From assembly GCA_963733535.1 (NCBI GenBank), contig CAVTDR010000006.1:1798775-1862774 (forward strand): 64,000 nucleotides of DNA, in the 5' to 3' direction. Numbering within the stretch: position 1 is the first letter of the stretch; every line of letters begins with the position of its first letter. Positions 16 to 56,404 of the stretch are shown piece by piece. Below the pieces are notes generated by a model, which did not search any database, was not told the origin of the DNA, and saw only the letters and a list, made by a program, of their open reading frames with translations. The stretch is from an uncultured Bacteroidota bacterium. Lineage in GTDB: Bacteria > Bacteroidota > Bacteroidia > Bacteroidales > UBA10428. Position numbers and translations under genes: made by a program.

Positions 16-570
16 TTGCTTCAAGCGACAGTGGCATTTGGACAATATGATAGTTGGCAAAAAAACCCAGATGGTACTTATGTTGTAGGCGGCTGCTATG
101 ACAGTTGGCAAAGAAACCCGGACGGAACCTATGTGTGTGGAGGAGCTTATGACAGTTATCAAAGAAATCCGGATGGAACCTACGTGTGTGGCGGAGCTTA
201 TGAAAGTTGGCAAAGAAACCCGGACGGAACTTATGTGTGCGGAGGAGCTTATGACAGTTGGCAAAGAAATCCGGATGGAACCTATGTATGTGGAGGAGCT
301 TATGACAGTTATCAAAGAAATCCGGATGGAACCTATGTGTGCGGAGGAGCTTATGACAGTTGGCAAAGAAACCCGGATGGAACCTATGTGTGTGGAGGAG
401 CTTATGACAGTTGGCAAAGAAACCCGGACGGAACCTATGTATGTGGAGGAGCTTATGACAGTTGGCAAAGAAACCCGGACGGAACTTATGTGTGCGGAGG
501 AGCTTATGACAGTTATCAAAGAAACCCGGACGGAACTTATGTTGTTGGATGGGGAAAATGCACAAAATAA
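16..570 (+). CDS. Cys-containing tandem-repeat protein (10 x 17-aa units YDSWQRNPDGTYVCGGA); 5' end probably outside the window
   Basis: The reading frame is open to base 1, and the listed start at 16 is TTG. There are ten near-identical 17-aa repeats and the stop is at 568-570. The other long ORFs here (8..748 -, 98..628 +) are alternative frames of the same repeat. Confidence 0.55.
   Translation: MLQATVAFGQYDSWQKNPDGTYVVGGCYDSWQRNPDGTYVCGGAYDSYQRNPDGTYVCGGAYESWQRNPDGTYVCGGAYDSWQRNPDGTYVCGGAYDSYQRNPDGTYVCGGAYDSWQRNPDGTYVCGGAYDSWQRNPDGTYVCGGAYDSWQRNPDGTYVCGGAYDSYQRNPDGTYVVGWGKCTK
46..555 (+). repeat. 51-bp tandem repeat x10 (coding)
   Basis: Direct reading shows a 51-nt period with a few synonymous or conservative changes (W/Y, D/E). 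Confidence 0.9.
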
Positions 571-615
571 CTACTATCACAGCGTGAATAAGAGACGAGA
601 ACCGGGGTCGGACCG

Positions 616-1720
616 GGCTATTATATAGAATACAATTGTTTTTGATAAAAGTCTTTAATTTGTTGTATTGGGATGTAGACATTGTTGTTTGAAAGTGACA
701 TTTCGCGATAGCTTTTATTTGGATCATTGTATTTCTTCGACGACTCAAGTATCCGATAGTAAGACAGGTAGTTTATCATGTACTTGTCGGAAACCCCATG
801 AAATGTTCTGATCCATTCCTTCAATTTACTATGTGTATTATTTACGTGCTGTAAATGGTAAACTTTGGGCTTAGTCCACTTCACATCGTATCCTGGGATT
901 CTGAAGTGGGTTAGGTTTTTCTTCTTAGCTAAAGCCTGATATGAATTACTGCCATCAGTGCAAAGAATACTCTTTTTTACTTTATTTTTTTGCTTATTAA
1001 CCCAAGGATCCATTGTTTTCGTTATCTGCTCGCTTGTGGGATTGCCAATACCTGTAATGCTCAATCTTAAATTGTGATTTCTGTCAATAGCAGTAAGTAC
1101 ACAAAGGCGTTTGCTTGTTCCTATTTCAGATGTTCCACCTCGTTTCCTGGGTTTTCTACCTCTTACCTTTTTTTGTCCCTTTCTCGAAGACAAAAAAAAA
1201 GTTTCATCCGCCTCTATAACGCCTGTAAGCTTATTACATCCAATATCCTTTAATGATTTCAATACTTTATGTCTCCAATCGAAGGATGTTTTATAGCTGA
1301 TCCCTGCCGCCTTAGCGCATTTATGCAACGTCATGCTTTGTAGCATACAGTCCAAATAAATATTCCACTGGTCCTTTTTATGGATCCAATGAACACTGGT
1401 TCCTGTTAATGGTGTAAATACTTTCTTGCATTCCTTACAACGATACTTCTGAACGCCTTTTACTTTTCCAAATAAAATCCAATGGTCACTTTTGCAGTGA
1501 GGACACGATATAGGCTGTCCTTCATGGATTTCTTTACGAACTTTATAAATCTCATGTTCACCGGTAGAAGGCTCATTCAACAAACCATTGAAGTGCTGGA
1601 AAACATTTAATTGATCCTCTTTAGATAATTGATTGATTCGGAAAATTAGATCTTTTATGGGGTCCATCGTTTGATTATCATATTTTTACAAATATAACAA
1701 TTATATATTATATAATAGCC
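616..1720 (-). mobile_element. IS1595-family insertion sequence, copy 1 (1105 bp)
   Basis: Perfect 12-bp terminal inverted repeats, GGCTATTATATA (616-627) and TATATAATAGCC (1709-1720). An 8-bp direct repeat TCGGACCG flanks it at 608-615 and 1721-1728. It carries a single transposase ORF. Confidence 0.9.
621..1667 (-). CDS. IS1595-family (ISXO2-like) DDE transposase with N-terminal zinc ribbon
   Basis: 348 aa. It has the CPHC..x..CKEC zinc ribbon (CPHCKSDHW...YRCKECKKVFTPLTGT) followed by a DDE domain (EADETFF, LCTDGSNSY), the typical IS1595 layout. Confidence 0.85.
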   Translation of the reverse strand: MDPIKDLIFRINQLSKEDQLNVFQHFNGLLNEPSTGEHEIYKVRKEIHEGQPISCPHCKSDHWILFGKVKGVQKYRCKECKKVFTPLTGTSVHWIHKKDQWNIYLDCMLQSMTLHKCAKAAGISYKTSFDWRHKVLKSLKDIGCNKLTGVIEADETFFLSSRKGQKKVRGRKPRKRGGTSEIGTSKRLCVLTAIDRNHNLRLSITGIGNPTSEQITKTMDPWVNKQKNKVKKSILCTDGSNSYQALAKKKNLTHFRIPGYDVKWTKPKVYHLQHVNNTHSKLKEWIRTFHGVSDKYMINYLSYYRILESSKKYNDPNKSYREMSLSNNNVYIPIQQIKDFYQKQLYSI

Positions 1721-1804
1721 TCGGACCGGACTTAAGAATTAAATATCAATGAATTAATCTCAAGAACACCCTTGTTTTTGACCTTAAAGGGCACTTTTTG
1801 GGGG
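1721..1804 (+). repeat. Module A (conserved ~95-bp gene-3' repeat), 3' part; its 5' part is at 598-615, split by IS1595 copy 1
   Basis: tcggaccggacttaagaattaaatatcaatgaattaa..acacccttgtttttgacctta.agggcactttttggggg aligns with the intact copies at 5997, 7918 and 11722. Confidence 0.8.
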
Positions 1805-1846
1805 CGAAAGTTTCGAATCCGGGTCGGTCGAATCCGGGTCGGACCG

Positions 1847-2951
1847 GGCTATTATATAGAATACAATTGTTTTTGATAAAAGTCTTTAATTTGTTGTATT
1901 GGGATGTATACAGCGTTGTTTGAAAGTGACATCTCGCGATAGCTTTTATTTGGATCATTGTATTTCTTCGACGACTCCAGTATCCGATAGTAAGACAGGT
2001 AGTTTATCATGTATTTGTCGGAAACCCCATGAAATGTTCTTATCCATTCCTTCAATTTACTATGTGTATTATTTACGTGCTGTAAATGGTATACTTTGGG
2101 CTTAGTCCACTTCACATCGTATCCTGGGATTCTGAAGTGGGTTAGGTTTTTCTTCTTAGCTAAAGCCTGATATGAATTACTGCCATCAGTGCAAAGAATA
2201 CTCTTTTTCACTTTATTTTTTTGCTTATTAACCCAAGGATCCATCGTTTTCGTTATCTGCTCGCTTGTGGGATTGCCAATACCTGTAATGCTCAGTCTTA
2301 AATTGTGATTTCTGTCAATAGCAGTAAGTACACAAAGGCGTTTGCTTGTTCCAATATCAGATGTTCCACCTCGTTTCCTGGGTTTTCTACCTCTTACCTT
2401 TTTTTGCCCCTTTCTCGAAGACAAAAAAAAAGTTTCATCTGCCTCTATAACGCCTGTGAGCTTATTACATCCAATATCTTTTAATGACTTCAATACTTTA
2501 TGTCTCCAATCAAAAGATGTTTTATAGCTGATCCCTGCCGCCTTAGCACATTTATGCAACGTCATGCTTTGTAGCATGCAATCTAAATAGATATTCCACT
2601 GGTCCTTTTTATGGATCCAATGAACACTGGTTCCTGTTAGTGGTGTAAATACTTTCTTGCATTCCTTACAACGATACTTCTGAACGCCTTTTACTTTTCC
2701 AAATAAAATCCAATGGTCACTTTTGCAGTGAGGACACAATATAGGCTGTCCTTCATGGATTTCTTTACGAACTTTATAAATTTCATGTTCACCGGTTGAA
2801 GGCTCATTCAACAATCCATTGAAGTGCTGGAAAACATTTAATTGATCCTCTTTAGATAATTGATTGATTCGGAAAATTAGATCTTTTATGGGGTCCATCG
2901 TTTGATTATCATATTTTTACAAATATAACAATTATATATTATATAATAGCC
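1847..2951 (-). mobile_element. IS1595-family insertion sequence, copy 2 (1105 bp)
   Basis: Same 12-bp inverted repeats (1847-1858 and 2940-2951) and the same 8-bp direct repeat TCGGACCG (1839-1846 and 2952-2959). The protein differs from copy 1 at 3 residues. Confidence 0.9.
1852..2898 (-). CDS. IS1595-family DDE transposase
   Basis: 348 aa, nearly identical to the ORF at 621..1667. Confidence 0.85.
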   Translation of the reverse strand: MDPIKDLIFRINQLSKEDQLNVFQHFNGLLNEPSTGEHEIYKVRKEIHEGQPILCPHCKSDHWILFGKVKGVQKYRCKECKKVFTPLTGTSVHWIHKKDQWNIYLDCMLQSMTLHKCAKAAGISYKTSFDWRHKVLKSLKDIGCNKLTGVIEADETFFLSSRKGQKKVRGRKPRKRGGTSDIGTSKRLCVLTAIDRNHNLRLSITGIGNPTSEQITKTMDPWVNKQKNKVKKSILCTDGSNSYQALAKKKNLTHFRIPGYDVKWTKPKVYHLQHVNNTHSKLKEWIRTFHGVSDKYMINYLSYYRILESSKKYNDPNKSYREMSLSNNAVYIPIQQIKDFYQKQLYSI

Positions 2952-3035
2952 TCGGACCGGACTTAAGAATTAAATATCAATGAATTAACCCTAAAAACAC
3001 CCTTGTTTTTGACCTTAGAGGGCACTTTTTGGGGG
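2952..3035 (+). repeat. Module A, 3' part; its 5' part is at 1812-1846, split by IS1595 copy 2
   Basis: Same consensus as the other Module A copies. Confidence 0.8.
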
Positions 3036-3412
3036 CGAAAAGAGGGGTTTTAGGAGAATGATAGATACTAGATACTGGATAATGGATGCTGGATGTGTGG
3101 GTGTAGTGGAACAGGGGAGAAAGGGTGGGAGACATTTATAAGGGGTTTCACCCCTTGTACCCCACTTACTTCTTTGCCATCGCTGCAAAGAAGTAAGCAA
3201 GAAAAATCTAGACAAAACGAATCCCCACGCGCTCTGCCAGAAGGCTGGAATTTCGAATAAAGTAATCGCCTAAACGGCAGTTTAGAAATACCGGTTTTTG
3301 AATGCATGTTATTAGATTAAGTCATTGTCAATTCTAATCCGTTTATGCTGAAGCCAAGGCCCTTTATTGAAATTCCAAGCCTTCCGGCATTCACCGCTTC
3401 GCCGCCATCGCG

Positions 3413-3560
3413 TTTTGTCCCGGCCAGCCCACGGTGCATCGATTGAGGTTGGTTATTGTTCGAATGTTGATGCAAAACCGGAATTCAACTACATGATTTT
3501 TTTAAATACCGTTATTTGCTTATGAAGATTGAATCAAAGATTATTGTAATTTAGATTTTA
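3413..3560 (+). promoter_or_regulatory. Module Z (conserved ~150-bp gene-5' repeat); possible promoter-bearing module
   Basis: ttttgtcccggccagcccacggtg...gaattcaactacatgattttttaaataccgttat.tgct...gaatcaaagattattgtaa recurs at 34272-34412, which ends ~30 nt before the ATG of 34445. Partial copies are at 6398-6660, 8700-8760, 22655-22700 and 36385-36450. Promoter function is inference only. Confidence 0.3.
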
Positions 3561-3763
3561 CTGATAGGAATCATGATCCTGTGGAGCTGGATCGTAAGCG
3601 AAGGAGATGACCGAAAAGAATAACCAGTACGTCCGGGTCTGTGAGGGGTTAGAGAGTTTTGGTACTTTCATAGTTGATTTATGCCATTAAGGAAGAAACA
3701 TAATCGACAGGAAATGCATTAGCTACTTTGCTTGAATTTAGCTACCTATATTTAATCAATAAT

Positions 3764-4147
3764 ATGGAAAAACATCTGGAATTTATTCAAGGAGTGATAA
3801 ATCGAATGTGTCAGAACTCATTCCTCATTAAGGGTTGGACAGTAACTCTTGTTTCTGCCTTATTTGCATTGGCGGCAAATGATACGAATCAAATATTTGT
3901 TGTTATTGCATATTTTCCAACTATAATTTTCTGGATTCTGGATAGCTACTACCTTTATCAAGAGCGTATTTTCAGAAAATTATATGATAAGGTTCGTCAA
4001 CAGCAAACTACAGACTATTCACTTTCTACAGAGGAAATTGACAATGGAGTTTCAGATTGGGCAATTGCAGCATTTTCTAAAACGATTATTCTGTTTTATG
4101 GAATTATTATTATAACTCTTCTTATTATATTGTATTGTATTATTTAA
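3764..4147 (+). CDS. small 3-TM membrane protein (hypothetical)
   Basis: ATG at 3764 (MEKHLEF...); the listed ORF start at 3728 is TTG. It has an N-terminal amphipathic helix, then hydrophobic spans at about residues 24-40, 45-65 and 107-127. No family was recognised. Confidence 0.6.
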   Translation: MEKHLEFIQGVINRMCQNSFLIKGWTVTLVSALFALAANDTNQIFVVIAYFPTIIFWILDSYYLYQERIFRKLYDKVRQQQTTDYSLSTEEIDNGVSDWAIAAFSKTIILFYGIIIITLLIILYCII

Positions 4148-4344
4148 CAGCATATGGTAAGAGAATATAGTTCAGTTTCCACTATGAGGATGTCAATGCA
4201 TTTCGTGCATCTGAACCATAAAATAGAAAGCTGAAAACAAGAGCATGTAAAATTAATACTTATCCTGTTTATGTTTGGGATTGGATATAATAACGGAAGT
4301 TGGAAAGCAGACAAGATCGCAGGAAAGTATGTTTCGCCTAAAAT

Positions 4345-5019
4345 ATGAAAACGAGTACAGCGATAAAAACTTACCATTTCACAAGTACGGAACTTAATCA
4401 AGTTCGTGACTATTACTTAAAGAGAAAAGTGCAGCTTAATGAAGTTATTCAAGCATTTAGTAGTGTTAAATATTCGCAATACGATATATTTTTAACCCAT
4501 AGGTCTACAGACAAAGAGCTTATAGATATATTATTTTTAGAACTTAAGTCTGACACATATAATGTATATGTGGATTGGTATGATCCGGAACTTAATCGAG
4601 ATGACATTACTGAGAAATCAGCTGAATTAATCAGATTAAGTATTCGTAAGTCAAAGTGTTTGATTTATGCAACACCAGTAAGTGACGATATGTCAAAATG
4701 GATGCCATGGGAATGCGGATATATGGATGGCTACAGTGGAAATGTTGCAATATTACCAATAATGGAGGAGCCAGATATGAAATTTAAGGGTCAGGAATTT
4801 TTAGGTCTCTATCCCTTAATAAAAAAGGGAGAAGACAATAAGTTATATGTGGTTTTTTCTGATGGGAGAATAATATTATTCGATGATTGGATTGCAAAGG
4901 TTCCAGCCACACGAAATGAAATCTTTAACACATACATGATCCAACAAGAGCAAATAGAAAAAAATCCACTTCAGGGAATTGGAACCATAAATCTTAAAAA
5001 CAATATAAAATTCTTATAG
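4345..5019 (+). CDS. TIR-like domain protein
   Basis: YDIFLTHRSTDKELID (beta-A/BB-loop-like start), then CLIYATPVSDDMSKWMPWECGY with a Glu in the position of the TIR catalytic Glu (S.W...E). The domain size fits. This is motif recognition only. Confidence 0.6.
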   Translation: MKTSTAIKTYHFTSTELNQVRDYYLKRKVQLNEVIQAFSSVKYSQYDIFLTHRSTDKELIDILFLELKSDTYNVYVDWYDPELNRDDITEKSAELIRLSIRKSKCLIYATPVSDDMSKWMPWECGYMDGYSGNVAILPIMEEPDMKFKGQEFLGLYPLIKKGEDNKLYVVFSDGRIILFDDWIAKVPATRNEIFNTYMIQQEQIEKNPLQGIGTINLKNNIKFL

Positions 5020-5931
5020 ATGAAGGCAGTCTGGTCATTATGGACAAAACCACTTTTGCAAACATCAAATAATGGATTATGGTCTTTTAATCATTATCTA
5101 TATTCCTGGATAATTTCAGTAATGACAATAAATCGGTTTTTCAATAGAACAGAATTATATACAGATGATTTTGGGAAACTGATTTTAGTTGATATTCTTA
5201 AAATACCTTTTGATAAAGTATATCTAAATCTTAACGAATTAGAAGATTTAAATATTAATTGGTGGGCAGCAGGTAAGATTCAAACTTATAGTTTACAGAA
5301 AGAACCATTTATTCATTTCGATAGTGATGTGTATTTATGGGATCGTCTTCCGGAAAGAATAATGTCAGCTAATATTTGTGCTCAAAGTCCGGAGTTTTTT
5401 AATAGCAATAACAGGGACTCATATTATAAACTTAAAGAAATTGAAGAAAATATTAAAAATGGCAATGGTTGGTTGCCTGGATATTGGAAAAATTACACAT
5501 CAGGTAGAGTTAATTTTGAAGCTTCTTGCTGTGGAATATTCGGAGGTAATGATTTAAAACTAATAAGAACATATTCAAAAAATGCATTAAATATTATTTG
5601 TCTTAAACGAAACAAGGATATCTGGAATACATGGGGAAATATTGCATTGGGTAATGTTCTTGTAGAACAATTTTTTCTAACATTAACTGTAGCTGCAAAA
5701 GGCAAAACTAATATTGAGTATCTGTTTAATGAATATGAAAACCCTTTCTCTGAAACTACTGAAAATAAATATTACACGCACTTAATATCTACAGCTAAAA
5801 GCGATATTATGGTACAAAAATTAATTGAAAGATTTATATTTCTTAATTGTTTGGAATATGTACCGAGAACTAGAAATGCAATACAGGTAATAGAAAATAA
5901 TTTAATTAAGTACAGCACACAACATGCGTAA
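5020..5931 (+). CDS. hypothetical protein, nucleotide-sugar-transferase-like (WSLWTKP N-terminus, HFDSDVYLW DxD-like motif)
   Basis: Its ATG directly follows the TAG of the TIR-like gene (5017-5019 then 5020). The motifs resemble an uncharacterised glycosyltransferase-like DUF common in Bacteroidota. That assignment is from memory and unverified. Confidence 0.5.
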   Translation: MKAVWSLWTKPLLQTSNNGLWSFNHYLYSWIISVMTINRFFNRTELYTDDFGKLILVDILKIPFDKVYLNLNELEDLNINWWAAGKIQTYSLQKEPFIHFDSDVYLWDRLPERIMSANICAQSPEFFNSNNRDSYYKLKEIEENIKNGNGWLPGYWKNYTSGRVNFEASCCGIFGGNDLKLIRTYSKNALNIICLKRNKDIWNTWGNIALGNVLVEQFFLTLTVAAKGKTNIEYLFNEYENPFSETTENKYYTHLISTAKSDIMVQKLIERFIFLNCLEYVPRTRNAIQVIENNLIKYSTQHA

Positions 5932-5996
5932 ATGTTGCTTTTTTTATATTTATTCCGGGTCGGACAAAGCTCTTATATAGAATGCAATTGTTTTTT

Positions 5997-6092
5997 TTCG
6001 AATCCGGGTCGGACCGGACTTAAGAATTAAATATCAATGAATTAACCCATAAAACATCCTTGTTTTTAACCTTAGAAGGCACTTTTGGGGGG
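5997..6092 (+). repeat. Module A, intact copy (preceded at ~5968-5996 by a solo IS1595 end remnant)
   Basis: ttcgaatccgggtcggaccggacttaagaattaaatatcaatgaattaacccataaaacatccttgtttttaaccttagaaggcacttttgggggg. It starts 66 nt after the stop of 5020..5931. Confidence 0.8.
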
Positions 6093-6096
6093 TGTG

Positions 6097-6347
6097 CTTC
6101 GACAAGCTCAGCAACCGAGGATCGACAGGCTCAGTAACCGTACTTCGACAGGCTCAGTAACCGTACTTCGACAGGCTCAGTAACCGTACTTCGACAGGCT
6201 CAGTAACCGTACTTCGACAAGCTCAGCAACCGTACTTCGACAAGCTCAGTAACCGTACTTCGACAAGCTCAGTAACCGAGGATCGATAGGCTCAGTAACC
6301 GGGGATGGGTAATCGGTAATCGGTGCTTCGACAAGCTCAGCAACCGG
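6097..6347 (+). repeat. 23-bp tandem repeat array (cttcgacaggctcagtaaccgta), ~9 units plus 1 separated unit
   Basis: Direct reading shows units differing only at a/g (acaAg/acaGg) and c/t (cagCaa/cagTaa). No spacers are present. Confidence 0.9.
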
Positions 6348-6766
6348 AACGGATACCTGCCTGCCCGGCTTGTCCCTTGCATGGCAGACAGGCAGGATTT
6401 TGTCCCGGCCAGCCAACGGTGCTTTGAATGAGGGCTGTTTTAATTCGATTGTTGATATAAAAATGTACCGTACCTTGAAAGCCATAACATAGATGTAGGA
6501 ACATATTATTCTAAATTTATTTTATTTCCATCCATTCCGAATATGATTTTATTCACGGGATACATTATCATTTTCTTTATTTTAACAAGAAATAAAGAAA
6601 TTAATAAATAAAGTTTTCTGAAATTCACCTACATGATTTTTTAGGTACCGTTACACTATAGATATTAAAGACCTATTCTCAGAGCAAAGTAACTTCCAGG
6701 TTCTATGAAAGGTAAATAGCTTTGAATGATCTTAAATAGTAATTATTCATATAAATATTTAATGCC

Positions 6767-7873
6767 ATGGACAAAATAATTGAAAACAATTCCATTCCAT
6801 CCGGTACTTTATTGAATAATATTTTGCCGGAAGAAAAAAATGAACTCAAAAAAAATAAAATCAAAGGATCATCATTGGACAAATCATTTATTAATAAAAA
6901 ACAAAAAATGAATGGATTTAAAAACCTGGATAATAGGAATTTTAACAGAAATTCCATTACCTATATCATTGTTATTCCAATTTTTATGGTGGGTGTTATC
7001 CTCCTGTCTCTTGGTATTATTTGTGAAGAATATGATTGGGGTATTGATAGAATTGTATCACTGATAATTAAAGAAATAGGCGTAGTTCTGATGGTTGTTG
7101 CTGTTATTCATTCAGTTTATGAACTACGTATTCATAAATATTTGCATGGAGATATTATGAAACTGGGGTTTAATGTTGAAAAACTTCAGAAAACGGTATC
7201 CATTGTAGGTGGCGCTATTGAGAGTGGATTATCTGCTGTTTATAGTTCCAGAGAAGAAGTAAACAAGGCCATTGAAGAAGAAATTGAAAATATGAAACCC
7301 AAATCAACCTTAAAATTATTAGGTATTTCTTTGGGTGCTTTTTTATGCCCACATGGGGCATTGCATGGATCTTTCAGGCAATTATTGGCGAAACGGGAAA
7401 TTGAAGTAATTGCCTTACTCCTTAATGCAGATTCAGATGCGGCATTAGAAAGAGCTAAATTGGAAGAGCCAAGATTCTTTATGAATAAGAAGACTGAAAT
7501 TGAAATAAACGAGGCATATCAAAAAACAAGATGTCATAATGAGCTCAAAACAGCAACTGACTTTGCACAGGATATTGCTGATCATTGTTGGTTCAGAGAT
7601 AATAATAAAGGTCAAAGTCCCGTAGATGCTCCAAATGAACCACCTATAAATGCTAACTTTTCTTACAAAGTATATGATGTTTCTCCACTTTGTTATTTGG
7701 TAATCTTTGAAAATTGTATGTTTTTGGAAAACTATCATAACGCTGGTAGAGGTGGCGAAGCTTCAGTTCTTAAAATCGGGAAGCAAAGTGGCGAATCAAT
7801 GGAAATGACCAGTTTATTCAGAATATATGAGAATCATTTTAATGTAATGAAAAATCACAGTGAATCCAAGTAA
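6767..7873 (+). CDS. 2-TM membrane protein with a C-terminal domain of unknown function (possibly DUF5919/PLD-like fold)
   Basis: 368 aa with two hydrophobic helices at about residues 66-120. The C-terminal pattern GLSAVYSSR...LLGISLGAF...VIALLLNADS...YKVYDVSPLCYLVIFENCMFLENYH..GRGGE resembles DUF5919 as I remember it. This is unverified. Confidence 0.45.
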   Translation: MDKIIENNSIPSGTLLNNILPEEKNELKKNKIKGSSLDKSFINKKQKMNGFKNLDNRNFNRNSITYIIVIPIFMVGVILLSLGIICEEYDWGIDRIVSLIIKEIGVVLMVVAVIHSVYELRIHKYLHGDIMKLGFNVEKLQKTVSIVGGAIESGLSAVYSSREEVNKAIEEEIENMKPKSTLKLLGISLGAFLCPHGALHGSFRQLLAKREIEVIALLLNADSDAALERAKLEEPRFFMNKKTEIEINEAYQKTRCHNELKTATDFAQDIADHCWFRDNNKGQSPVDAPNEPPINANFSYKVYDVSPLCYLVIFENCMFLENYHNAGRGGEASVLKIGKQSGESMEMTSLFRIYENHFNVMKNHSESK

Positions 7874-7917
7874 TTTGAGCCTTAATTAATTTTCTTTATT
7901 TGTAGCCATTTTTTTAA

Positions 7918-8011
7918 ATCGAATCGGTCGGACCAATCTTAATGGTTAAATATCAATGAATTAACCCCAAAAATACCCTTGTTTTTGACTTTAGAGGGTG
8001 CTTTTGGGGGG
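7918..8011 (+). repeat. Module A, intact (diverged) copy
   Basis: atcgaatcggtcggaccaatcttaatggttaaatatcaatgaattaaccccaaaaatacccttgtttttgactttagagggtgcttttgggggg. It starts 45 nt after the stop at 7873. Confidence 0.75.
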
Positions 8012-8015
8012 TGTG

Positions 8016-8150
8016 CTTCGACAAGCTCAGCAACCGTACTTCGACAGGCTCAGCAACCGTACTTCGACAGGCTCAGCAACCGTACTTCGACAGGCTCAGT
8101 AACCGTACTTCGACAAGCTCAGTAACCGAGGATCGATAGGCTCAGAAACC
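8016..8150 (+). repeat. 23-bp tandem repeat array (~5-6 units)
   Basis: Same unit as the array at 6097-6347. Confidence 0.9.
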
Positions 8151-8871
8151 GGCGGTCGGTAAACGGTAATCGGTGTTGAGAACAGATGCTGGTTAATGGT
8201 TTCTGGATGCTTGATGTGTGGGTGGGGTGGAACAGGGGTGTGGGAAATCAACAATCCAATCAATAAATAAATTAACCAAATAATCTAAGTTCATTCGAAC
8301 TGGTACAACTTCAATCAAAACACCGTGGGTTGGCCGGGACAAAACCCTGCCTGCCACCGCACGGCCTAAGCCAGGCCAGGTAATGAAGTTTTAGTTCTTC
8401 ACACAGTTCTATAGCAACCTATGAATTGAAACTGAGCCGAACAGATACTGGATACCTTTTTGCGTATCATGCAAAAAGAGCTAACTATGATCACCTTTAC
8501 CGACTGATATTGAATTTCAAGAAATACCTAGATATTAGAGTCAAAACCAATCCTAAAGTAATTATGTCAACAAATCCGGGTTAAACCAGACTTAAAGTTT
8601 AAATAGCAATGAATTAACCACACGTTCGTCGTAGTTTTCTTCAGATTTTAACTATACCGCTTTTAACCTTAGTCGACTGCCATTAAGTGGGATTTAACTG
8701 TACCAAATTTCAATAATTCAAGTACATGTTTTTTTAAGGGCCGTTATATTAATTTAATTTTTAAAGCAGATAGCGAAACATAATCCTGAGAAGTCGGATA
8801 GGGCAACCGAAGCCCACTTTTAGCTTTTTCGTCTTTTTTATAATTGAACCAAACTATTTAATAGTAAGAGT

Positions 8872-9624
8872 ATGGAAAAAAAATGTCCGAATTGTGGAAA
8901 ATTAACAGATAAACTAGTTAAAATCGATAATGCACAGGTATCAGCTGAAATCACTGAACTGGTTGGAGTTGCTTATTCAAGCGCAGATCATTATTGTGTT
9001 ACGTGCGCCAGACAAATGATTGGGATTTCTGATGAAGATTTAATTATAGAAGATAGATACCGCTCAAAAAATTCAAATTTTCAAATTAGCTTACTAAAAG
9101 GGAAAATTGGACAAATAATTCTTGAAAGTATTTTTGAAAATTTTGGATATGAGGTTCATCCCTACGGTTATGAAAGTCGTTTGACAAATATCATCAAAAG
9201 TTTGAGAAAGAACTGGTCAAATCAGGTAATCCGGCAAATTCGTTCTACCCCTGATCTATTAGTATACGATAAGGAAAAGAATGAAGGATTTTTAATTGAA
9301 GTAAAGTTCACAACTTTAAAACCTGAGGACTATTGGATTGAAGAAAAGCAATTAAAAAAATATATGGAATTATGGGGACCAGCAATTTTGATAGTTATTC
9401 AATATCCAACTTTGAGAATATTCTGTAAAACTTTTAATGAAATATTACTGGACGATTTGACTTTAACTTCGCCAAGTTTTGCCCCTGATTCTGTTGGTTA
9501 TAAGTTGAAATTGGAGGATCTTTTTTCCGACTTGTGTCAACAATTTCGATTAATCAATAAGGACGAATTGACCTTATTTCTGGACCGAATAAAGAATGAA
9601 ATATTGAGTAAGTACGACAGTTAA
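8872..9624 (+). CDS. Zn-ribbon + PD-(D/E)xK (restriction-endonuclease-like) domain protein
   Basis: N-terminal CPNC...CVTC zinc ribbon. The C-terminal part has GQIILESIFENFGYEV (E), STPDLLVYD (D) and FLIEVKF (ExK), in the order expected for a PD-(D/E)xK nuclease core. Confidence 0.55.
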   Translation: MEKKCPNCGKLTDKLVKIDNAQVSAEITELVGVAYSSADHYCVTCARQMIGISDEDLIIEDRYRSKNSNFQISLLKGKIGQIILESIFENFGYEVHPYGYESRLTNIIKSLRKNWSNQVIRQIRSTPDLLVYDKEKNEGFLIEVKFTTLKPEDYWIEEKQLKKYMELWGPAILIVIQYPTLRIFCKTFNEILLDDLTLTSPSFAPDSVGYKLKLEDLFSDLCQQFRLINKDELTLFLDRIKNEILSKYDS

Positions 9625-9822
9625 TGCTCTTCTACATTGAATCTGAAGTGTTTGCTATAAAAGCATTGCTCAATGTATTTTTTTTTCTATAGATTATAAA
9701 ACACCTAATATGGTCTTTCAAAATGTAGCTCAATTTTATGTTTAACCAGTAGCCATATTTTAGGATCAAACAGTGGCAAAAGCACTACTTTCTAGTATCT
9801 AGAATTATAAATTCATATTAAA

Positions 9823-10389
9823 ATGAATAACGAAAAAATTAACCCAAAAGAACTAATCATTGATATGCATCGTCATTCTCAAAGTCTTTATGATGCTGAA
9901 CTTGACATATATCTTGAGAATGAAAAGATTGCTAACTGGTTGTTTGGACTTTCAACCGGTGGCTTAGTATTTGCTTCCTCCCGAATTGACTCGGAAAATA
10001 CTTCTAAAATTAAGTGCATTTTAATTTTTGTTTTCATTTCATTTATTCTTTTACTTATAACTATTTTCTTTCTTAAGATGTTCACAAGGGCAATAAAGCA
10101 GTATGTTCATAGAATTAAATTTTATTTTGATTCGATTAAACTAAGACTATTGAACTACTCAAATCAAATAGAAGTTGATTTAAAAGCTAATACTGAAACT
10201 ATTTTTACTGTTTACAACAAATTTCTTGAAGGAAAATATGAAAGCGGAAACTCAGGCGATCTTTTCAAGAATGGAATTAAAGACTATGATGGAGCCGTTA
10301 GATTTGCAGCGATTTTAAACTGGGCTTGTATCTTAGTATTTGTAATTCAATATATTTTGATTTTTATATTAGTATTAAGATCAATATAG
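9823..10389 (+). CDS. hypothetical membrane protein
   Basis: 188 aa with hydrophobic spans at about residues 40-60, 65-90 and 160-188. No motif was recognised. Confidence 0.45.
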   Translation: MNNEKINPKELIIDMHRHSQSLYDAELDIYLENEKIANWLFGLSTGGLVFASSRIDSENTSKIKCILIFVFISFILLLITIFFLKMFTRAIKQYVHRIKFYFDSIKLRLLNYSNQIEVDLKANTETIFTVYNKFLEGKYESGNSGDLFKNGIKDYDGAVRFAAILNWACILVFVIQYILIFILVLRSI

Positions 10390-10413
10390 AAGAATCGAAT
10401 CGGGGTCGGACCA

Positions 10414-10622
10414 GGCTATTATATAGAATACAGTTGTTTTTGATAAAACTCCTTAATTTGTTCTATAGGGATGTAGACAGCGTTGTTTGACAGTGACATC
10501 TCGCGATAGCTTTTATTTGGATCATTATATTTCTTCGACGACTCAAGTATCCTATAGTAGGACAAATAGTTTATCATGTATTTGTCGGAAACCCCATGAA
10601 ATGTTCTGATCCATTCCTTCAA
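10414..10622 (-). pseudogene. truncated IS1595 copy (terminal ~209 bp carrying the transposase C-terminus)
   Basis: Starts with GGCTATTATATAG directly after ..ggggtcggacca. Homology to the full copies ends at ..ccattccttcaa. The ORF 10419..10730 carries only the last ~70 aa of the transposase. Confidence 0.85.
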
Positions 10623-10741
10623 AATTGCAACCGTATGTGTTATATAAGCATATATAAACTTTTGGGCGGAAATGGTATTTAAAAGATGAATTTTACCTCG
10701 ATCAGTGCTTCTATAGTACAAGTAACGCAAGCAATGCAGCT

Positions 10742-10843
10742 AAAAATGCAATTGAGATTTATAATTCCAAAAGACTTCATTTATCTTTAGATTATAAAAC
10801 TCCTAATATGGTCTTTCAAAATGTAGCTCAGTTTTATGTTTAA
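10742..10843 (+). pseudogene. remnant of an IS3/IS481-type DDE integrase C-terminus
   Basis: Translates to KNAIEIYNSKRLHLSLDYKTPNMVFQNVAQFYV*, the rve-domain C-terminal signature YN..R.H.SL.Y.TP. Related remnants lie at 9688-9775 and ~28690-28760. Confidence 0.7.
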
Positions 10844-10888
10844 CCAGTAGCCATATTTTGGGATAAGACATTTTAAAAAGCATTACAC

Positions 10889-11716
10889 ATGGATAAAGAC
10901 AAGTTGAAAAGTTATCTTGAGAAGGGAACAGATATAACAGGAGGAGCTGTTGGGGGAGCAATTGGATTAATAGGAGGTCCAGTTGGTGCTATCTTAGGCG
11001 GAGGATTAGGCGTGGCCCTTTCAATTGGAGTAAAAGAAATAATTAGTAGACATCTTTCGGAGAGAGAAAATTCTAGGACTGCTGCGTCAACTGCTTATGT
11101 GATTACAGGGATTAAAGATAAGCTTGATTCAGGCTTGCAAATAAGGACTGATAACTTTTTTGATAATTCTACTGGCAGAAGCTCTGCTGATGAATTATTT
11201 GAGGGTGTATTATTGAAATGTAAAGATCAATATCAGGAAAAGAAAATAAAATATATTTCAAAGATATTTGAGAAAGCAACCTTTGATTATGGAATTTCAG
11301 CAGAGACCGCAAATCAAATATTATCTATGGCTGAGAGCTATACATATCGAAAGTATTGCATAATATCATTTTTTGCACAAAAGGATGAATTGTATGATAC
11401 TTCCAAGTTAATGCAAGAAGTTTATTCATGGTATCCTAATGCTGTATTTTCGTTTGAACTTGAAATTTTAAAACAAGATATATTTGAATTAGTTAATTCT
11501 GGTATTGTAGACCAAAATAATTTAATGATGGTAACAAGAAACGAAGTTGTTCCAGGCGATTTTATACTTACAAAAATAGGGAAAGCTTTATATGATATTA
11601 TGGACTTAGTAGAAATACCAAAGTCAGATATTGACCCAATCTATAATGAACTGCTTTATAAGGAGGAATTTGGCATTAGTGAACATGGAACGAAAAATAA
11701 AATTAAACAAAACTAG
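10889..11716 (+). CDS. hypothetical protein with N-terminal glycine-zipper segment
   Basis: GGAVGGAIGLIGGPVGAILGGGLGVALSIG at residues ~18-47. The rest is predicted soluble and no family was recognised. Confidence 0.5.
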   Translation: MDKDKLKSYLEKGTDITGGAVGGAIGLIGGPVGAILGGGLGVALSIGVKEIISRHLSERENSRTAASTAYVITGIKDKLDSGLQIRTDNFFDNSTGRSSADELFEGVLLKCKDQYQEKKIKYISKIFEKATFDYGISAETANQILSMAESYTYRKYCIISFFAQKDELYDTSKLMQEVYSWYPNAVFSFELEILKQDIFELVNSGIVDQNNLMMVTRNEVVPGDFILTKIGKALYDIMDLVEIPKSDIDPIYNELLYKEEFGISEHGTKNKIKQN

Positions 11717-11721
11717 GGTAA

Positions 11722-11816
11722 ACGAATCCGGGGCGGACCAAACTTAAGAATTAAATATCAGTGAATTAATCCTAAAAACACCCTTGTTTTTGACCTTAGA
11801 GGGCACTTTTTGGGGG
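11722..11816 (+). repeat. Module A, intact copy
   Basis: acgaatccggggcggaccaaacttaagaattaaatatcagtgaattaatcctaaaaacacccttgtttttgaccttagagggcactttttggggg. It starts 6 nt after the stop at 11716. Confidence 0.8.
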
Positions 11817-11878
11817 TGTGCTTCGACAGGCTCAGTAACCGGGGAAGGGTAATCGGTGTTGAGAGCAGATGCTGGATA

Positions 11879-12215
11879 CTAATTTAACTTAGACAAGTTT
11901 AATTGAATATATTTTGATGTAATAGTGTTAATACCTGGAAATAACTCGTAGTTTACGGAGAGTTATTCTGGGTATTAACACTTTTCTTTTTTGCTACTTT
12001 TTTCTTTTGTTCATAAGACTAATTTTTGTTTAAAACAACAGCTTTTAATGGAAGCCAAGATCGTCTAATACTAATATTTTGATGGTCCTGATTGGCCATA
12101 TTCTTACTTAATCGAGACTATATCAAGGCCGACAAAGGGAGCCTTAAAGCTGGGGCAGAAGGTCTTTAAAAAAGCCTTAAAGTATCCAGAGATGCTTCCC
12201 TTTGCCGTACCAAAA
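11879..12215 (-). ncRNA. candidate bridge/seek RNA region (3' non-coding arm of the IS110-like element); identical regions at 30330-30666 and 32002-32338
   Basis: 337 nt of non-coding DNA lie downstream of the transposase stop, versus 78 nt upstream. There is a long imperfect hairpin at 11925-11981 and short matches to the insertion-site and element-end sequences (see findings). No folding or covariance model was run. Confidence 0.3.
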
Positions 12216-13472
12216 TCATGCTGCAGTTTTTATGTATTGTATTTTATGCTCGTAATCAAATGCTTGATTGTTCTTAATTAAGGAATGGATCGTTCGTAAC
12301 AATTTGCGTGATATAGCAATAATTGCCTTTTTCTTTTCCATTCCTTTATTCACATACATTGTGTATTGTTCATGGTAAATACCCCCCTTCTTAACCATTC
12401 GCAAGGCAAGAAAATATAAACTGGTACGTAAATGCTCATTGCCTACTTTTGATATTCTTCTGTTACCTCTATGGTTACCTGAACTGTTTTCAATCAAATT
12501 TAGTCCTCCAAACTTAAGTAGTTCTTTGTTTGTCTTGAATTGGCTAAATTCTCCGATCTCAGAAATAATTGTTGCTATGGTAATATCACCTATCCCTTTT
12601 ATGGTTCTGAGAATATAATATTCTTCCAGGGAAGCCAATGATGCTTTGATCTGATTCTCAACAGCTGACATTTGTGTGTCAAACAACTCTATTTGAACAA
12701 TATATGCTAAAACCATGCTCTGATAGGATTCAAGCCCATCTCTAACTCCAATAGTATTAAAAGCAGCTGTAATAAGCTCTTCAGCTTTTTTTATATTACA
12801 TCTTCCCCTGCTTATTTTTTGGAGTTCTTTTATCAATGGCTCCAGACCTAGCTTTATAATACTCCCTGGACTTGGATGGTTTTTTAGTAAAAATGTACTG
12901 GTTTTGCAACTAATGTCTTTAAACAAATCTAAATATTCTGGAAAGTATAAAGACAAAATAGCATGTATACGGTTCACAACCCTTTTACGGTCAGCCTGCA
13001 AAGCTTTTCTGGAACGTGTTAACTCTCTCACATTCGCCTTTACCCCTTGAGGCAGATTTACCCTTAGGCTGCTTCCAATAAGAACTACTTGAGCGATTAC
13101 TTTGGGATCTTTATGATCTGTTTTATTAGGGGTATTGTCTGTTACATCTTTGAATCGTTTAGTATGCTTTCCATTAACCTGCACGAGGGAGTAATTTGTA
13201 TTGTTATGAATGTAATATGCCAATGGGAGCCAGTAATTTCCTGTTGACTCTACTGCGATTACTACATTTTCAATATCGTTAACCTTTGTAAATCTGTTTA
13301 TTTTACCTATTAACAAATTAAATCCTTCTCTTGTGTTGGAGAACTGAAAGCTCTTTGCTGATTCATAACTCAATGTTAAGAAAAAGCCGTAATGATTGCT
13401 TTTACCGATGTCGATTCCAACTATCAAAGTTTTTCCGTTTACTTTTATAAATTTGTACTGTTTATTTTTCAT
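12216..13472 (-). CDS. IS110-family DEDD transposase/recombinase
   Basis: 418 aa. It has an N-terminal RuvC-like DEDD domain (VGIDIGKSNH, ESTGNYW) and a C-terminal HhH/Transposase_20-type region (IKGIGDITIATIISEIGEFSQF...SSGNHRGNRRISKVGNEHLR). Confidence 0.85.
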   Translation of the reverse strand: MKNKQYKFIKVNGKTLIVGIDIGKSNHYGFFLTLSYESAKSFQFSNTREGFNLLIGKINRFTKVNDIENVVIAVESTGNYWLPLAYYIHNNTNYSLVQVNGKHTKRFKDVTDNTPNKTDHKDPKVIAQVVLIGSSLRVNLPQGVKANVRELTRSRKALQADRKRVVNRIHAILSLYFPEYLDLFKDISCKTSTFLLKNHPSPGSIIKLGLEPLIKELQKISRGRCNIKKAEELITAAFNTIGVRDGLESYQSMVLAYIVQIELFDTQMSAVENQIKASLASLEEYYILRTIKGIGDITIATIISEIGEFSQFKTNKELLKFGGLNLIENSSGNHRGNRRISKVGNEHLRTSLYFLALRMVKKGGIYHEQYTMYVNKGMEKKKAIIAISRKLLRTIHSLIKNNQAFDYEHKIQYIKTAA

Positions 13473-13605
13473 AAAGACTGCTATTTTAGATTCTTAAGTC
13501 AAATCAAACTTAGCAGTCTTTTTTTATTCTGCAATATAGTAAGCTGGATATTTGATTCTGGATGTGTGGGAATGGGAGTGGTTGAACAAGGGTGTGGGAA
13601 ATTAA

Positions 13606-13652
13606 TCAACACATCAACACATCAACACATCAACACATCAACACATCAACAA
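13606..13652 (+). repeat. 8-bp microsatellite (catcaaca) x ~6
   Basis: Direct reading. Confidence 0.9.
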
Positions 13653-13877
13653 ATTATATTCGGTGTAACTAAAAATTCATGCAGTTGAATTTAGGTTTGA
13701 TTTGGAGCTTTGGAAAAAATTGAAAGAATTGGCATATCTTGATCATGGAGTTGGTGTATTTTTGTCCTTGCCGGTTTGCTGGCTTTGGGAATTGCCCTGC
13801 TAACAGTTAGCCGGCAAGGCTGGCGGGCAGCAACAAGGAAAATAAAAACGAAATGTTTAATTAAAAGGATCATAAAA

Positions 13878-16910: not shown

Positions 16911-16972
16911 CCGGGACATACTTTTATAGCCTTTGATTCCTAGATTATTTATAACGAATCGGGGTCGGACCA

Positions 16973-17288
16973 GGCTATTATATAGAATACAATTGTTTTT
17001 GATAAAACTCCTTAATTTGTTGTATAGGGATGTAGACAGCGTTGTTTGAAAGTGACATCTCCCGATAACTTTTATTTGGATCATTGTATTTCTTCGACGA
17101 CTCCAGTATCCGATAGTAAGACAGGTAGTTTGTCATGTATTTGTCGGAAACCCCATGAAATGTTCTGATCCATTCCTTCAATTTACTATGTGTATTATTT
17201 ACGTGCTGTAAATGGTAAACTTTGGGCTTGGTCCACTTCACATCGTATCCTGGGATTCTGAAGTGTGTTAGGTTTTTCTTCTTAGCTA
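16973..17288 (-). pseudogene. truncated IS1595 copy (~316 bp of the end carrying the transposase C-terminus)
   Basis: Begins GGCTATTATATAG directly after ..ggggtcggacca, and homology ends at ..cttagcta. The ORF 16978..17418 carries the last ~105 aa of the transposase fused to unrelated sequence. Confidence 0.85.
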
Positions 17289-21919: not shown

Positions 21920-22015
21920 TTAATAATTAAGACCTTAATTTGTTGTTTACATACAACAGATTTTTAAAATGTATAACCTAAAGGTTGACCTTAGAGGGCA
22001 CTTTTTGGGGGTGTG

Positions 22016-22082
22016 CTTCGACAAGCTCAGCAACCGTACTTCGACAAGCTCAGTAACCGTACTTCGACAGGCTCAGTAACCG
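22016..22082 (+). repeat. 23-bp tandem repeat array (3 units)
   Basis: Same unit as the arrays at 6097 and 8016. It is preceded by a partial Module A (21986-22011). Confidence 0.9.
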
Positions 22083-22861
22083 GCGGTCGGTAAACGGTAA
22101 TCGGTGTTGAGAACAGATGCTGGTTAATGGTTTCTGGATGCTTGATGTGTGGGTGGGGTGGAACAGGGGTGTGGGAAATCAACAATCCAATCAATAAATA
22201 AATTAACCAAATAATCTAAGTTCATTCGAACTGGTACAACTTCAATCAAAACACCGTGGGTTGGCCGGGACAAAACCCTGCCTGCCACCGCACGGCCTAA
22301 GCCAGGCAGGCAGGGCGATGGCGACGAGGCGGTGAATGGCGGAAGGTTTGGAATTTCTTATAAAGGGCCTTGGCTTTAGCATAAACGGATTAGAAAAGAC
22401 AATGAATTAATCTAATAACATGAATTTAAAAACCTGTATATCGAACAAGGCCGTTTAGGCGTCTACTTTGTTAGAAATTCCTGCCTTCTGGCAGAGCGCG
22501 GTGGGGATCGTTATGTCCCTGCCTGCCACCGCACAGCCCAAGCCGGGCAGGCAGGGTCATAGGGGGTGAAACCCCCTGTAAATTCCGGCTCTCCCTTCTC
22601 TTCCTCCCTTCATGGTTCGGGTTGGGCTATCTTGGGCTAAATTAACCTAAGCATTCAGGGTTTTGTCCCGGCCAACCCACGGTGCGTTTATTGGGGTATG
22701 TTGTTATTTGGATGTTGCTGCAATAACTCCAGATGAACAAGAAAATATGAAGCAGTCAAATGTTATTTTGAACCCTGTGTTTTTGCAATTGCTGAGTAAT
22801 TTATCCCAAATAGTTCAAAAAAAGTATTTATGTTGCCTTTTGCAAATGGTATCTTTGCTTT

Positions 22862-25687: not shown

Positions 25688-25957
25688 TTTAGCGGTCAGC
25701 TTTCAGCAGTCAGCGATCAGCAGGGAAAGGTAATCGGTGCTTCGACAAGCTCAGCAACCGAAGATCGACAAGCTCAGGAACCCGAACAGATACTGGATAC
25801 CTTTTTGCGTATCATGCAAAAAGAGCAAACTATGATCACCTTTACCGACAAATTTCTTCCATTTGCCGAATAAATACGGGTTGTTATTTGAGACAATATT
25901 ATTTTTAGAATCTAAATTCATTTTTAAATTTTAATTTATCGAGCAATTAGATATAAT

Positions 25958-29558: not shown

Positions 29559-29589
29559 TTTTATCAATCTCTTAAAAAGGTTTCTTAAT

Positions 29590-34271: not shown

Positions 34272-34412
34272 TTTTGTCCCGGCCAGCCCACGGTGATATG
34301 ATTGAGGTTAGTTGTGGTTCAGAAGTTGCTGCAAAACCTGAATTCAACTACATGATTTTTTAAATACCGTTATATGCTATGGATAATGAATCAAAGATTA
34401 TTGTAAATTGGA
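34272..34412 (+). promoter_or_regulatory. Module Z copy immediately upstream of 34445
   Basis: Aligns with 3413-3560. Promoter function is inferred only. Confidence 0.3.
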
Positions 34413-55779: not shown

Positions 55780-55849
55780 CTTCAAAAAAGGTGACAACTG
55801 CTGCTCAGACGCGTTTTCTGTAAGAACTCACACTGAAGCAATTGAAATA

Positions 55850-55932: not shown

Positions 55933-55933
55933 A

Positions 55934-56389: not shown

Positions 56390-56404
56390 TTTGTTTCTTT
56401 TAAG

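Follow-up and report, generated by a model that had tools for sequence, protein, structure and literature searches.

Here we describe a short repeated sequence, which we call Module A, in a 64-kb stretch of DNA from an uncultured Bacteroidota bacterium (contig CAVTDR010000006.1; the whole stretch analyzed is referred to as the window). Module A is a real repeat of ~95 nt. We consider it likely that it is a lineage-restricted member of a mosaic repeat system resembling BIMEs (bacterial interspersed mosaic elements), BOX elements and NIMEs (Neisseria intergenic mosaic elements), as well as a hotspot for an insertion sequence (IS) of the IS1595 family. A preliminary description of the same DNA had compared the arrangement, in which unrelated open reading frames (ORFs) are followed by Module A, to the ORF plus attC units of integrons. 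It had offered as an alternative that the module is a repeat that colonizes the 3' flanks of genes, perhaps acting as a terminator. That alternative fits the placement of the module, although its terminator part found no support.

A profile built from five full copies of Module A was used for an nhmmer search of the window. It returned 13 matches with E < 0.02, every one on the + strand, in agreement with the single orientation noted earlier, and overall we found five full and seven partial or diverged copies in the range 596-29575. Chance would be expected to give ~0.1 matches to the 16-nt start of the module and 0 to its 30-nt core. (T)CGAATCC opens the module and TTTTTGGGGG closes it (e.g., 5998-6092), and nine of 10 copies share their 5' edge to within one or two nucleotides. 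The copies, and the IS1595 sequences that interrupt some of them, are as follows.

596-615, + strand: Module A copy 1, 5' part (CGAGAACCGGGGTCGGACCG), 25 nt past the stop codon at 570; left target-site duplication TCGGACCG at 608-615.
616-1720, - strand: IS1595-family element of 1105 bp inside Module A; transposase gene 621-1667; inverted repeat GGCTATTATATA.
1721-1804, + strand: Module A copy 1, 3' part, opening with the right copy of the target-site duplication.
1813-1846, + strand: partial duplicate, 15 nt long, of the module start (1813-1827); the 5' part of Module A copy 2 comes next (1828-1846); in tandem to the preceding module.
1847-2951, - strand: second complete IS1595 element, 1105 bp, splitting Module A copy 2.
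2952-3035, + strand: Module A copy 2 (start 1828), 3' part.
5953-5997, + strand: degenerate module start (TTCCGGGTCGGAC) and ~30-nt relic of an IS1595 left end, 22 nt past the stop codon at 5931.
5998-6092, + strand: Module A, full and uninterrupted (profile E 4e-35); empty IS target TCGGACCG at 6009.
7919-8011, + strand: Module A, full, 46 nt past the stop codon at 7873.
8573-8620, + strand: Module A, diverged and partial (profile E 2e-8), in mid-block with no gene directly before it.
10395-10413, + strand: Module A start, 5 nt past the stop codon at 10389, then an IS1595 left-end fragment at 10414-10622.
11723-11816, + strand: Module A, full, 6 nt past the stop codon at 11716 (profile E 6e-36).
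16955-16972, + strand: Module A start, 44 nt past the stop codon at 16910, then an IS1595 left-end fragment at 16973-17288.
21985-22011, + strand: Module A, 5'-truncated to its last ~27 nt, past the stop codon at 21919; followed by three tandem units to 22082.
28333-28386, + strand: Module A, first ~55 nt, 132 nt upstream of the start of the minus-strand gene 27011-28198.
29525-29575, + strand: Module A, diverged 5' half, inside the 3' end of ORF 29091-29558, where it replaces the last eight codons.

Seven of the nine independent Module A loci start no more than 66 nt past a + strand stop codon, at distances of 4-66 nt. The expected share in the non-coding, non-IS DNA of positions 1-30300 is 12% (binomial test, P = 1.1e-5). 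All seven gene-end cases in the preliminary description were recovered from the sequence and the profile at their exact coordinates. Four further loci, not listed there, depart from the pattern: the copies at 1813-1846, 8573-8620 and 28333-28386 have no stop codon directly before them, and the diverged half at 29525-29575 lies inside the end of an ORF.

Module A is not alone in this placement past stop codons: blocks of repeats that lack the module are placed alike, both in the window and in another organism. Repeat blocks begin a median of 32 nt past the upstream stop codon and end a median of 124 nt before the next start codon (Mann-Whitney P = 0.004), and the stop codons at 25649, 30277 and 63423 are each adjoined or overlapped by the start of a block that has no Module A. 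In the other organism, of 40% G+C (loci L093 and L094), the tail modules of these blocks were observed directly past two stop codons; their order and their orientation to the gene are as in the window, again without Module A.

Close relatives were reached through 90% protein clusters, and no Module A was found in the ~150 kb of DNA fetched from relatives. Comparison with relatives of 89-93% identity indicates that the presence of Module A is derived at three gene ends. The first is that of an S9 peptidase gene, where 93% nucleotide identity to a relative ends at 16942, 32 nt past the stop codon. In the relative a canonical terminator (aatagccgtatcaatgatgcggctattttt) comes next and the downstream genes differ; in the window there are 12 unique nt followed by the Module A start and an IS1595 fragment. 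The second is that of a gene pair encoding ThsB-like and DUF6734 proteins, which is 89% identical to relatives that lack Module A, with the homology ending at the DUF6734 stop codon. The third is that of the gene for a 155-aa membrane protein (29091-29558), also 89% identical to relatives, with homology ending at 29517. The protein ends in ...EKLKS in six relatives and in ...SEAGSDQTQIQ in the window, the latter encoded by diverged Module A. Based on the relatives' ends, the 5' edge of the module at 29525 is a true junction that overwrote eight codons.

At least one copy is older. A contig from a relative of 95% identity (L180) keeps AATCCGGGTCTGAC, the first 14 nt of Module A, at the position of the 28333 copy, which therefore predates the split of the two lineages. 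Right past the module start, at ...GGGTCTGACAAGGCTCAGC, the G+C content of this JGI contig (positions 1-260) changes from ~37% to ~68%. The contig is probably an assembly chimera joined through a widespread GACAAGCTCAGC-type motif, and consequently it cannot indicate what follows the module start in that relative. Pattern searches for Module A were negative in GTDB genomes, one per species (first pattern), in JGI metagenome contigs (first and degenerate patterns) or in IMG/VR (degenerate and hairpin-region patterns); two matches were obtained in all, neither of which extended past the pattern.

The preliminary description had regarded a module start joined to an IS1595 fragment as a variant of the module, and these are actually copies of Module A into which the IS has inserted at one fixed target site. 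The transposase of the element at 616-1720 matches Pfam DDE_Tnp_IS1595 (3e-15) and NCBIfam transpos_IS1595 (6e-52). Both complete elements have the inverted repeats GGCTATTATATA and an 8-bp duplication of TCGGACCG, as is characteristic of the IS1595 family, and the preferred target within Module A can be written as TCGGACCG/A. At 6009 this site is empty, and an uninterrupted module equals the left flank plus the right flank minus one duplicate. The same Module A position is adjoined by the left-end fragments at 10414 and 16973 (flank TCGGACCA) and by the ~30-nt relic at about 5966. In a Bacteroidales metagenome-assembled genome (MAG), a 276-nt left-end fragment, 89% identical, has a flank (ccggggtcgtaccg) that resembles the target, and the remainder of Module A is absent beside it. 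The recurrence of one junction at the fragments in the window, together with the flank in the MAG, points to a strong sequence preference of the IS1595 element, and Module A is, judging from these junctions, a hotspot for the IS and not part of it.

The number of independent IS1595 insertions in the window is between two and four. The two full copies may represent one insertion, as a 1231-nt unit comprising the IS and the module halves is tandemly repeated with 97% identity, and the second unit is probably a tandem duplicate of the first. Relatives of the transposase in GTDB genomes are 30-39% identical, with the exception of one fragment, and an exact look-up found no database records of the two IS1595 proteins.

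Module A usually stands at the head of a collinear block. It is followed by one to 10 units of a 23-nt variable-number tandem repeat (VNTR), GGTAATCGGT repeats, GATGCTGGATA repeats (the target of an IS110 element) and then GTGTGGGTGGGG / GTGTGGGTGGGGTGGAACAGGGG. The blocks end with a G+C-rich hairpin (CCCTGCCTGCC...GGCAGGCAGGG), a second conserved sequence termed Module Z, and ~100-200 unique nt before the next gene. In this way 0.5-0.9 kb of further repeats lies between Module A and the next gene start, and the repeat families D4, D8, D13, D15, D16 and D19 in the window support the mosaic structure. The VNTR and Module Z sequences are as follows.

3413-3560, + strand: Module Z (family D13); further copies at 6398-6467, 22661-22730, 34272-34412 and 36380-36449.
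6094-6346, + strand: 23-nt VNTR (CTTCGACARGCTCAGYAACCGTA), nine units, GGTAATCGGT and one more unit.
8013-8150, + strand: 23-nt VNTR, six units, past the full Module A at 7919-8011.
11818: 23-nt VNTR, one unit, then GGTAATCGGT / GATGCTGGATAC modules.
22013-22082, + strand: 23-nt VNTR, three units.
25738-25782: 23-nt VNTR without Module A.

The VNTR had been said to usually follow Module A. Of the six copies in which the 3' end of the module is present, four have it, and it also lies at 25738-25782 with no Module A. With unit numbers of 9(+1), 6, 1 and 3, the blocks have the fixed leader, variable tandem units and trailing modules of a BOX-like element, the trailing modules being alike in each case. 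A 295-nt composite at 22013-22307 is 97% identical to 8082-8376 and, taken together with the 5'-truncated Module A at 21985, suggests that larger pieces with variable end points have been copied or converted. The copies of Module Z noted in the preliminary description were confirmed as repeat family D13. [quoted passage not shown] Inverted 24-nt termini (CACCGTGGGTTGGCCGGGACAAAA / TTTTGTCCCGGCCAACCCACGGTG) bracket ~385 nt with two G+C hairpins at 22250-22685, and were also observed at 34045-34295. By its layout the unit at 22250-22685 looks like a MITE, of which Module Z would be the right end.

We hypothesize that the mosaic blocks are tolerated up to stop codons and not in promoter or 5' leader regions, and that Module A is a piece added by this lineage at their leading edge. 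The blocks may spread by insertion, or by recombination or gene conversion between repeats, and their end points would be partly fixed (the 5' edge of Module A) and partly variable (as in the truncated copy at 21985). Copies would survive only where they are harmless, namely up to stop codons and sparing ~100-200 nt before the next start codon, and such survival could account for the "just past the stop codon" pattern. The uniform orientation may reflect co-orientation with either transcription or the leading strand, which the window cannot separate. The cassette-like appearance would then result from repeats and several IS families having piled up in a low-G+C, defence-rich, rearranged region.

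Several observations weigh against this interpretation. No enzyme that would mobilize Module A was found in the window; the only Y1 transposase gene there is flanked by an unrelated repeat. The module has neither terminal inverted repeats nor a target duplication. Its uniform orientation at about 10 loci and its very sharp 5' edge exceed what tolerated junk would predict, and a sharp edge in one orientation would also fit a site-specific junction. The module start kept at the 28333 locus in the relative of 95% identity means that this copy is not very recent. In addition, local duplication among the copies may inflate the count of independent events, and the placement and strand statistics cover only 64 kb of a genome of ~2 Mb.

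The anatomy of the module bears on whether it has a function at the RNA level. Its center is A+T-rich with two direct GAATTAA repeats, and its 3' half can form an imperfect 14-pair hairpin of about -14 kcal/mol that is kept in all five full copies. The hairpin has a 13-nt loop and A-U-rich arms with no U tract following, in comparison to the G+C-rich stem, 3-8 nt loop and U tract of an intrinsic terminator. The alignment of the five sequences contains a single double substitution, and for this reason covariation is uninformative either way. When the whole module was folded on both strands, it scored no better than shuffled sequences (z = +0.15 to -2.1). A stop codon was read in all three frames within the first ~45 nt. 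A terminator scan of positions 3000-12200 found no terminator-like site in or beside any copy of the module, and Rfam at gathering thresholds gave no match in the whole window. The sole Rfam match at permissive E-values in 5900-8900, to a tobamovirus internal ribosome entry site (E = 2.6), was attributed to chance.

In light of these data, Module A might be a functional 3' untranslated region (UTR) element whose hairpin is kept by selection in the sense orientation as a transcript-end, RNA-stability or insulating signal, which is compatible with a selfish origin. We regard this as unlikely. It would account for the co-orientation of the copies with their upstream genes, 4-66 nt past stop codons with no recognizable terminator between, for the conservation of the hairpin and for the closure of all three frames. 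However, the form of the hairpin, the result of the terminator scan, the folding energies within the shuffle range and the missing covariation support all argue against it. Moreover, five copies were broken by IS1595 or truncated without visible replacement, the copy at 28333 lies upstream of a divergent gene, and a good canonical terminator has given way to the module region at the S9 locus, the one locus where a relative shows the ancestral state. The suggestion that Module A serves as a terminator finds no support in that replacement or in the scan.

The comparison to integrons gained no support from the sequence. When 50 ORFs from the whole 64 kb (every gene-like ORF of at least 90 aa) were scanned with Pfam, no tyrosine or serine recombinase was detected, including Phage_integrase and IntI, which agrees with the earlier remark that none is visible; the only recombination enzymes were those of IS1595, IS110 and one Y1 transposase. 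A search of both strands of the window for an inverted partner to the module ends found none, so an attC-like palindrome is not present, and the 5' start has no inverted match in the window, the one hairpin being in the 3' half. GTTRRRY is not conserved at either end of the aligned modules. Rfam, which does not contain the attC model of IntegronFinder, gave no match in the window. Units are not compact, with 0.5-0.9 kb of repeat modules before the next start codon. Module A has none of the integron-type cassette-site features that were tested, and the integron-like reading of the array was abandoned based on the lack of an integrase in 64 kb, the lack of inverted ends, folding like that of shuffles and the non-compact units.

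A cassette system of another kind, in which Module A is the recombination site, the recombinase is encoded elsewhere and units of gene plus site were inserted successively, is in our view quite improbable. The sharp 5' edge common to nine of 10 copies and the uniform orientation would be expected of such a site. Synteny with relatives breaks 3-25 nt from this edge at three loci, and between the copies lie unrelated genes of low G+C content, some of them of defence type. The direct GAATTAA repeats could be protein-binding sites, and the homing of a sequence-specific IS to Module A parallels that of IS1202-family elements, which are described as targeting pdif sites (PMC10132070; bioRxiv 10.1101/2022.12.17.520857). 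Against this are the absence of a recombinase from the window and the lack of clean boundaries to the units, with 0.5-0.9 kb of other shared repeats between the site and the next gene, as well as the copies that are tandem, mid-block, 5'-truncated or upstream of a divergent gene. In variable regions, synteny is expected to break at gene ends in any case, and the tail modules have the same stop-codon placement without Module A. The sole comparable multi-gene unit, the ThsB-like and DUF6734 pair, is shared with relatives in which there is no Module A.

A further reading would make Module A what remains of repeated integration at a tRNA gene, its first 20 nt being a displaced tRNA 3' end and the array a tandem series of decayed integrative elements; we find this highly improbable. 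The idea comes from the layout of TTCGAATCC-GGG-TCGGACC-G/A, which can be read as T-loop, 3' strand of the T-stem, 3' strand of the acceptor and discriminator, with the repeat beginning inside the "T-loop". Some tRNA-targeting integrases cross over within the T-loop. The module start is compatible with the 3' ends of tRNA-Asp and tRNA-Arg, and IMG/VR tRNAs fitting GGTTCGARTCCNNNNCGGACCR are mostly tRNA-Asp (43 of 59; best match 18 of 20 positions), but this search was circular, its pattern having been taken from the module. The exact 19-mer and the pattern GTTCGAATCCNNNTCGGACCG were absent from IMG/VR. The window has no tRNA gene, integrase or integrase relic, and ARAGORN detected no tRNA either there or in the fetched relatives. 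Furthermore, conservation of the tRNA-like part does not exceed that of the remaining module, variant copies (8573 and L180) start with CAA(A)TCC and not TCGAATCC, the module start can also be aligned by eye to the 23-nt VNTR unit (TTCGA...GGNTC...ACCG), and the units are only 1-2.4 kb.

The two preceding ideas can be combined, with Module A as the attachment site of an undescribed, integron-independent cassette-accretion system. In that case, the site would perhaps derive from a tRNA 3' end, defence and accessory genes would be stacked one way by a recombinase encoded outside the window, and IS1595 would home to the site. The chance that this combination is correct appears very small. If Module A were a cassette recombination site, it would represent a second, non-integron way to build defence-gene arrays, which would be of wide interest. 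Lastly, that Module A is a MITE-type deletion derivative of IS1595, with its 5' start and 75-nt tail as the true outer ends of the IS, is almost certainly wrong: the module start does always adjoin an IS left end, including in another organism, but terminal inverted repeats of the IS itself lie directly inside the 8-bp direct duplication, the contigs of its close relatives are 1108-1180 bp and match the 1105-bp core, the two parts of the module are not inverted repeats of each other, and the empty site at 6009 largely refutes the idea.

Further candidates were considered for the sequences in and around the blocks. A dif/Xer-like site in the A+T-rich center of Module A was rejected, its repeats being direct and not inverted. 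The search for a shared target motif 5' of the module showed a weak preference for A and nothing more, and no duplicated flank was visible at ten Module A 5' junctions. Neither a scan nor inspection by eye gave a consistent match to a sigma-70 or Bacteroidetes-type promoter at block ends, and a BLAST search of an entire mosaic block against plasmids had no match. The 23-nt unit CTTCGACARGCTCAGYAACCG was seen in 12 IMG/VR stretches (L081-L092) of 37-66% G+C. In one of these (L085, 3318-3420), related 21-24-nt units lie in frame in a 2171-aa phage ORF and encode Ser/Thr-rich linkers (ASTSSAT...). These occurrences suggest that the motif is widespread in coding and non-coding DNA alike.

Two other transposable elements are associated with the mosaic blocks.

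11880-13543, - strand: IS110-family element of 1664 bp in a GATGCTGGATAC module; Pfam DEDD_Tnp_IS110, NCBIfam IS110 RNA-guided transposase (5e-70).
55934-56392, - strand: Y1 (IS200-like) transposase gene between inverted repeats of 36 nt and 21 nt; flanks 55846-55935 and 56400-56471.

Three identical 1664-bp IS110 elements lie in GATGCTGGATAC modules, at 11880-13543, 30331-31994 and 32003-33666, the latter two being a head-to-tail tandem with CTGGATAC between them. Their insertion context within one repeat module is ...GAT(A/G)CTGGATAC, the element, and then ...CTGGATAT. The organism of 40% G+C (ENA ERZ25039462 contig_16400; L093-L096) has an IS110 that is 99.8% identical, at the same kind of site and including a tandem pair. 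Six copies of CAACACAT were observed past the IS110 at 13600-13650 of the window, and in L093 (11600-11950) a 60-nt composite of GGTAATCGG, GATACTGGATGCTGGAT and GTGTGGGTG units is present five times directly past a stop codon.

The Y1 gene has an NCBIfam IS200 score under the family cut-off (45 vs. 55 bits), and a PDB search with its protein was uninformative. Its flanking unit of ~90 nt (55846-55935) recurs in a mosaic block at 63680-63770. From this layout, the gene and its flanking units are an arrangement like that of REP (repetitive extragenic palindromic) sequences and their RAYT (REP-associated tyrosine transposase). Kinship of Module A with the flanking repeat was ruled out, with alignment scores mostly in the shuffle range and no similarity.

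The window as a whole is 36% G+C and encodes a type IX secretion sorting domain. Genes in the 4-12 kb and 17-22 kb regions are 28-33% G+C vs. 36-42% in the second half of the window. The following genes between the repeats had matches to defence families.

3728-4147: candidate defence protein PDC-M50A (2e-50).
4345-5019: ThsB-like TIR protein (2.5e-41).
22862-24564: PDC-M19A/B pair, a candidate defence system (about 1e-123, full length), with a DUF488 domain in the first protein.

The TIR-like cargo proposed earlier is among these as the ThsB-like protein. Searches of Pfam, NCBIfam and defence families gave no family match for the other cargo proteins, and PHROGs was uninformative. The ThsB-like TIR and DUF6734 genes form a conserved two-gene unit (window 4304-5931; L101-L104), whose neighbors in relatives include TIR, ThsB_TIR, HNH, McrBC, UvrD-like helicase and type I restriction-modification genes, and DUF6734 may be a partner or effector of the TIR protein. 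The nearest named relatives of the S9 peptidase, ~70% identical, are in Ignavibacteria, Ignavibacteriales and Melioribacteraceae MAGs, and the analysis took the genome to be probably one of Ignavibacteriota. In relatives the S9 gene lies amid intact MacB-type genes, and in the window its upstream neighbor is replaced by IS110 and a mosaic block; a relic of an FtsX/MacB-type permease 3' end was seen by eye upstream of it at 13771-13860 (L105, 5549-5618). Two relics of the C-terminal end of an rve-type transposase (...NAIEIYNSKRLHLSLDYKTPNMVFQNVAQFYV*), also seen by eye, lie at 9682-9788 and 10734-10886, each directly upstream of a cargo gene. The ORF that runs off the window start, 16-570 (46-600), contains at least 10 copies of a 51-nt (17-aa) tandem repeat, YDSWQRNPDGTYVCGGA. 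Overall, this is a variable region that is rich in defence genes and littered with IS debris.

These findings have practical value. The mosaic repeats explain why assemblies of this group of bacteria break at these loci. They were found to overwrite a terminator and a gene 3' end, and mark synteny break points in a defence-gene region. The IS1595 element at TCGGACCG and the IS110 element at CTGGATAC are two clear-cut cases in which an IS targets a repeat module sequence-specifically, and the second is relevant to RNA-guided IS110 targeting as a clean case for the prediction of bridge- or seeker-RNA targets.

Module A can be compared with several known systems. Integrons have been reported in Ignavibacteriae (PMC9024848). 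With attC sites, such as the Vibrio cholerae repeats and CALINs (clustered attC sites with no integron integrase), Module A shares the appearance of a conserved element of ~100 nt in one orientation just past unrelated accessory ORFs. It differs from them in having no complementary R''/R' ends, site-wide palindrome, IntI in the window or compact cassettes, and in having copies off gene ends. The pdif (Xer) modules of Acinetobacter plasmids, with their IS1202-family elements, are similar in that a short conserved site lies between modules with an IS at a fixed relative position. However, Module A lacks the 11-6-11 imperfect palindrome, and its A+T-rich repeats have a direct rather than an inverted arrangement.

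Module A also resembles interspersed repeats. NIMEs (dRS3) and Correia elements likewise form intergenic repeat arrays by variable genes, with rearrangement break points and mobile-element insertion, although NIME units have 20-bp inverted dRS3 ends and Correia elements carry terminal inverted repeats along with a TA duplication, neither of which is found in Module A. The pneumococcal BOX elements (boxA-boxB(n)-boxC) have a comparable organization of fixed leader, variable tandem unit and trailing modules, and are intergenic, lineage-restricted and without a known transposase. There is no sequence kinship, and the blocks in the window are longer (0.5-0.9 kb) with more module types and inverted, MITE-like parts.

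The BIMEs and REP sequences of enterobacteria and pseudomonads, with their RAYTs (TnpA-REP), are also extragenic mosaics of short repeat families in a preferred order, mostly past gene ends, and a specific IS target. BIMEs are targeted by IS1397/ISKpn1 and by IS110-family elements. The window even has a RAYT-like Y1 gene with its own inverted REP-like units, though these are unlike Module A, which, in a different phylum, is a 95-nt asymmetric sequence in one orientation with one internal hairpin, and not a short G+C-rich palindrome. As read here, the Module A system is undescribed but of an ordinary kind, namely a family of lineage-specific mosaic intergenic repeats in a little-studied group of bacteria.

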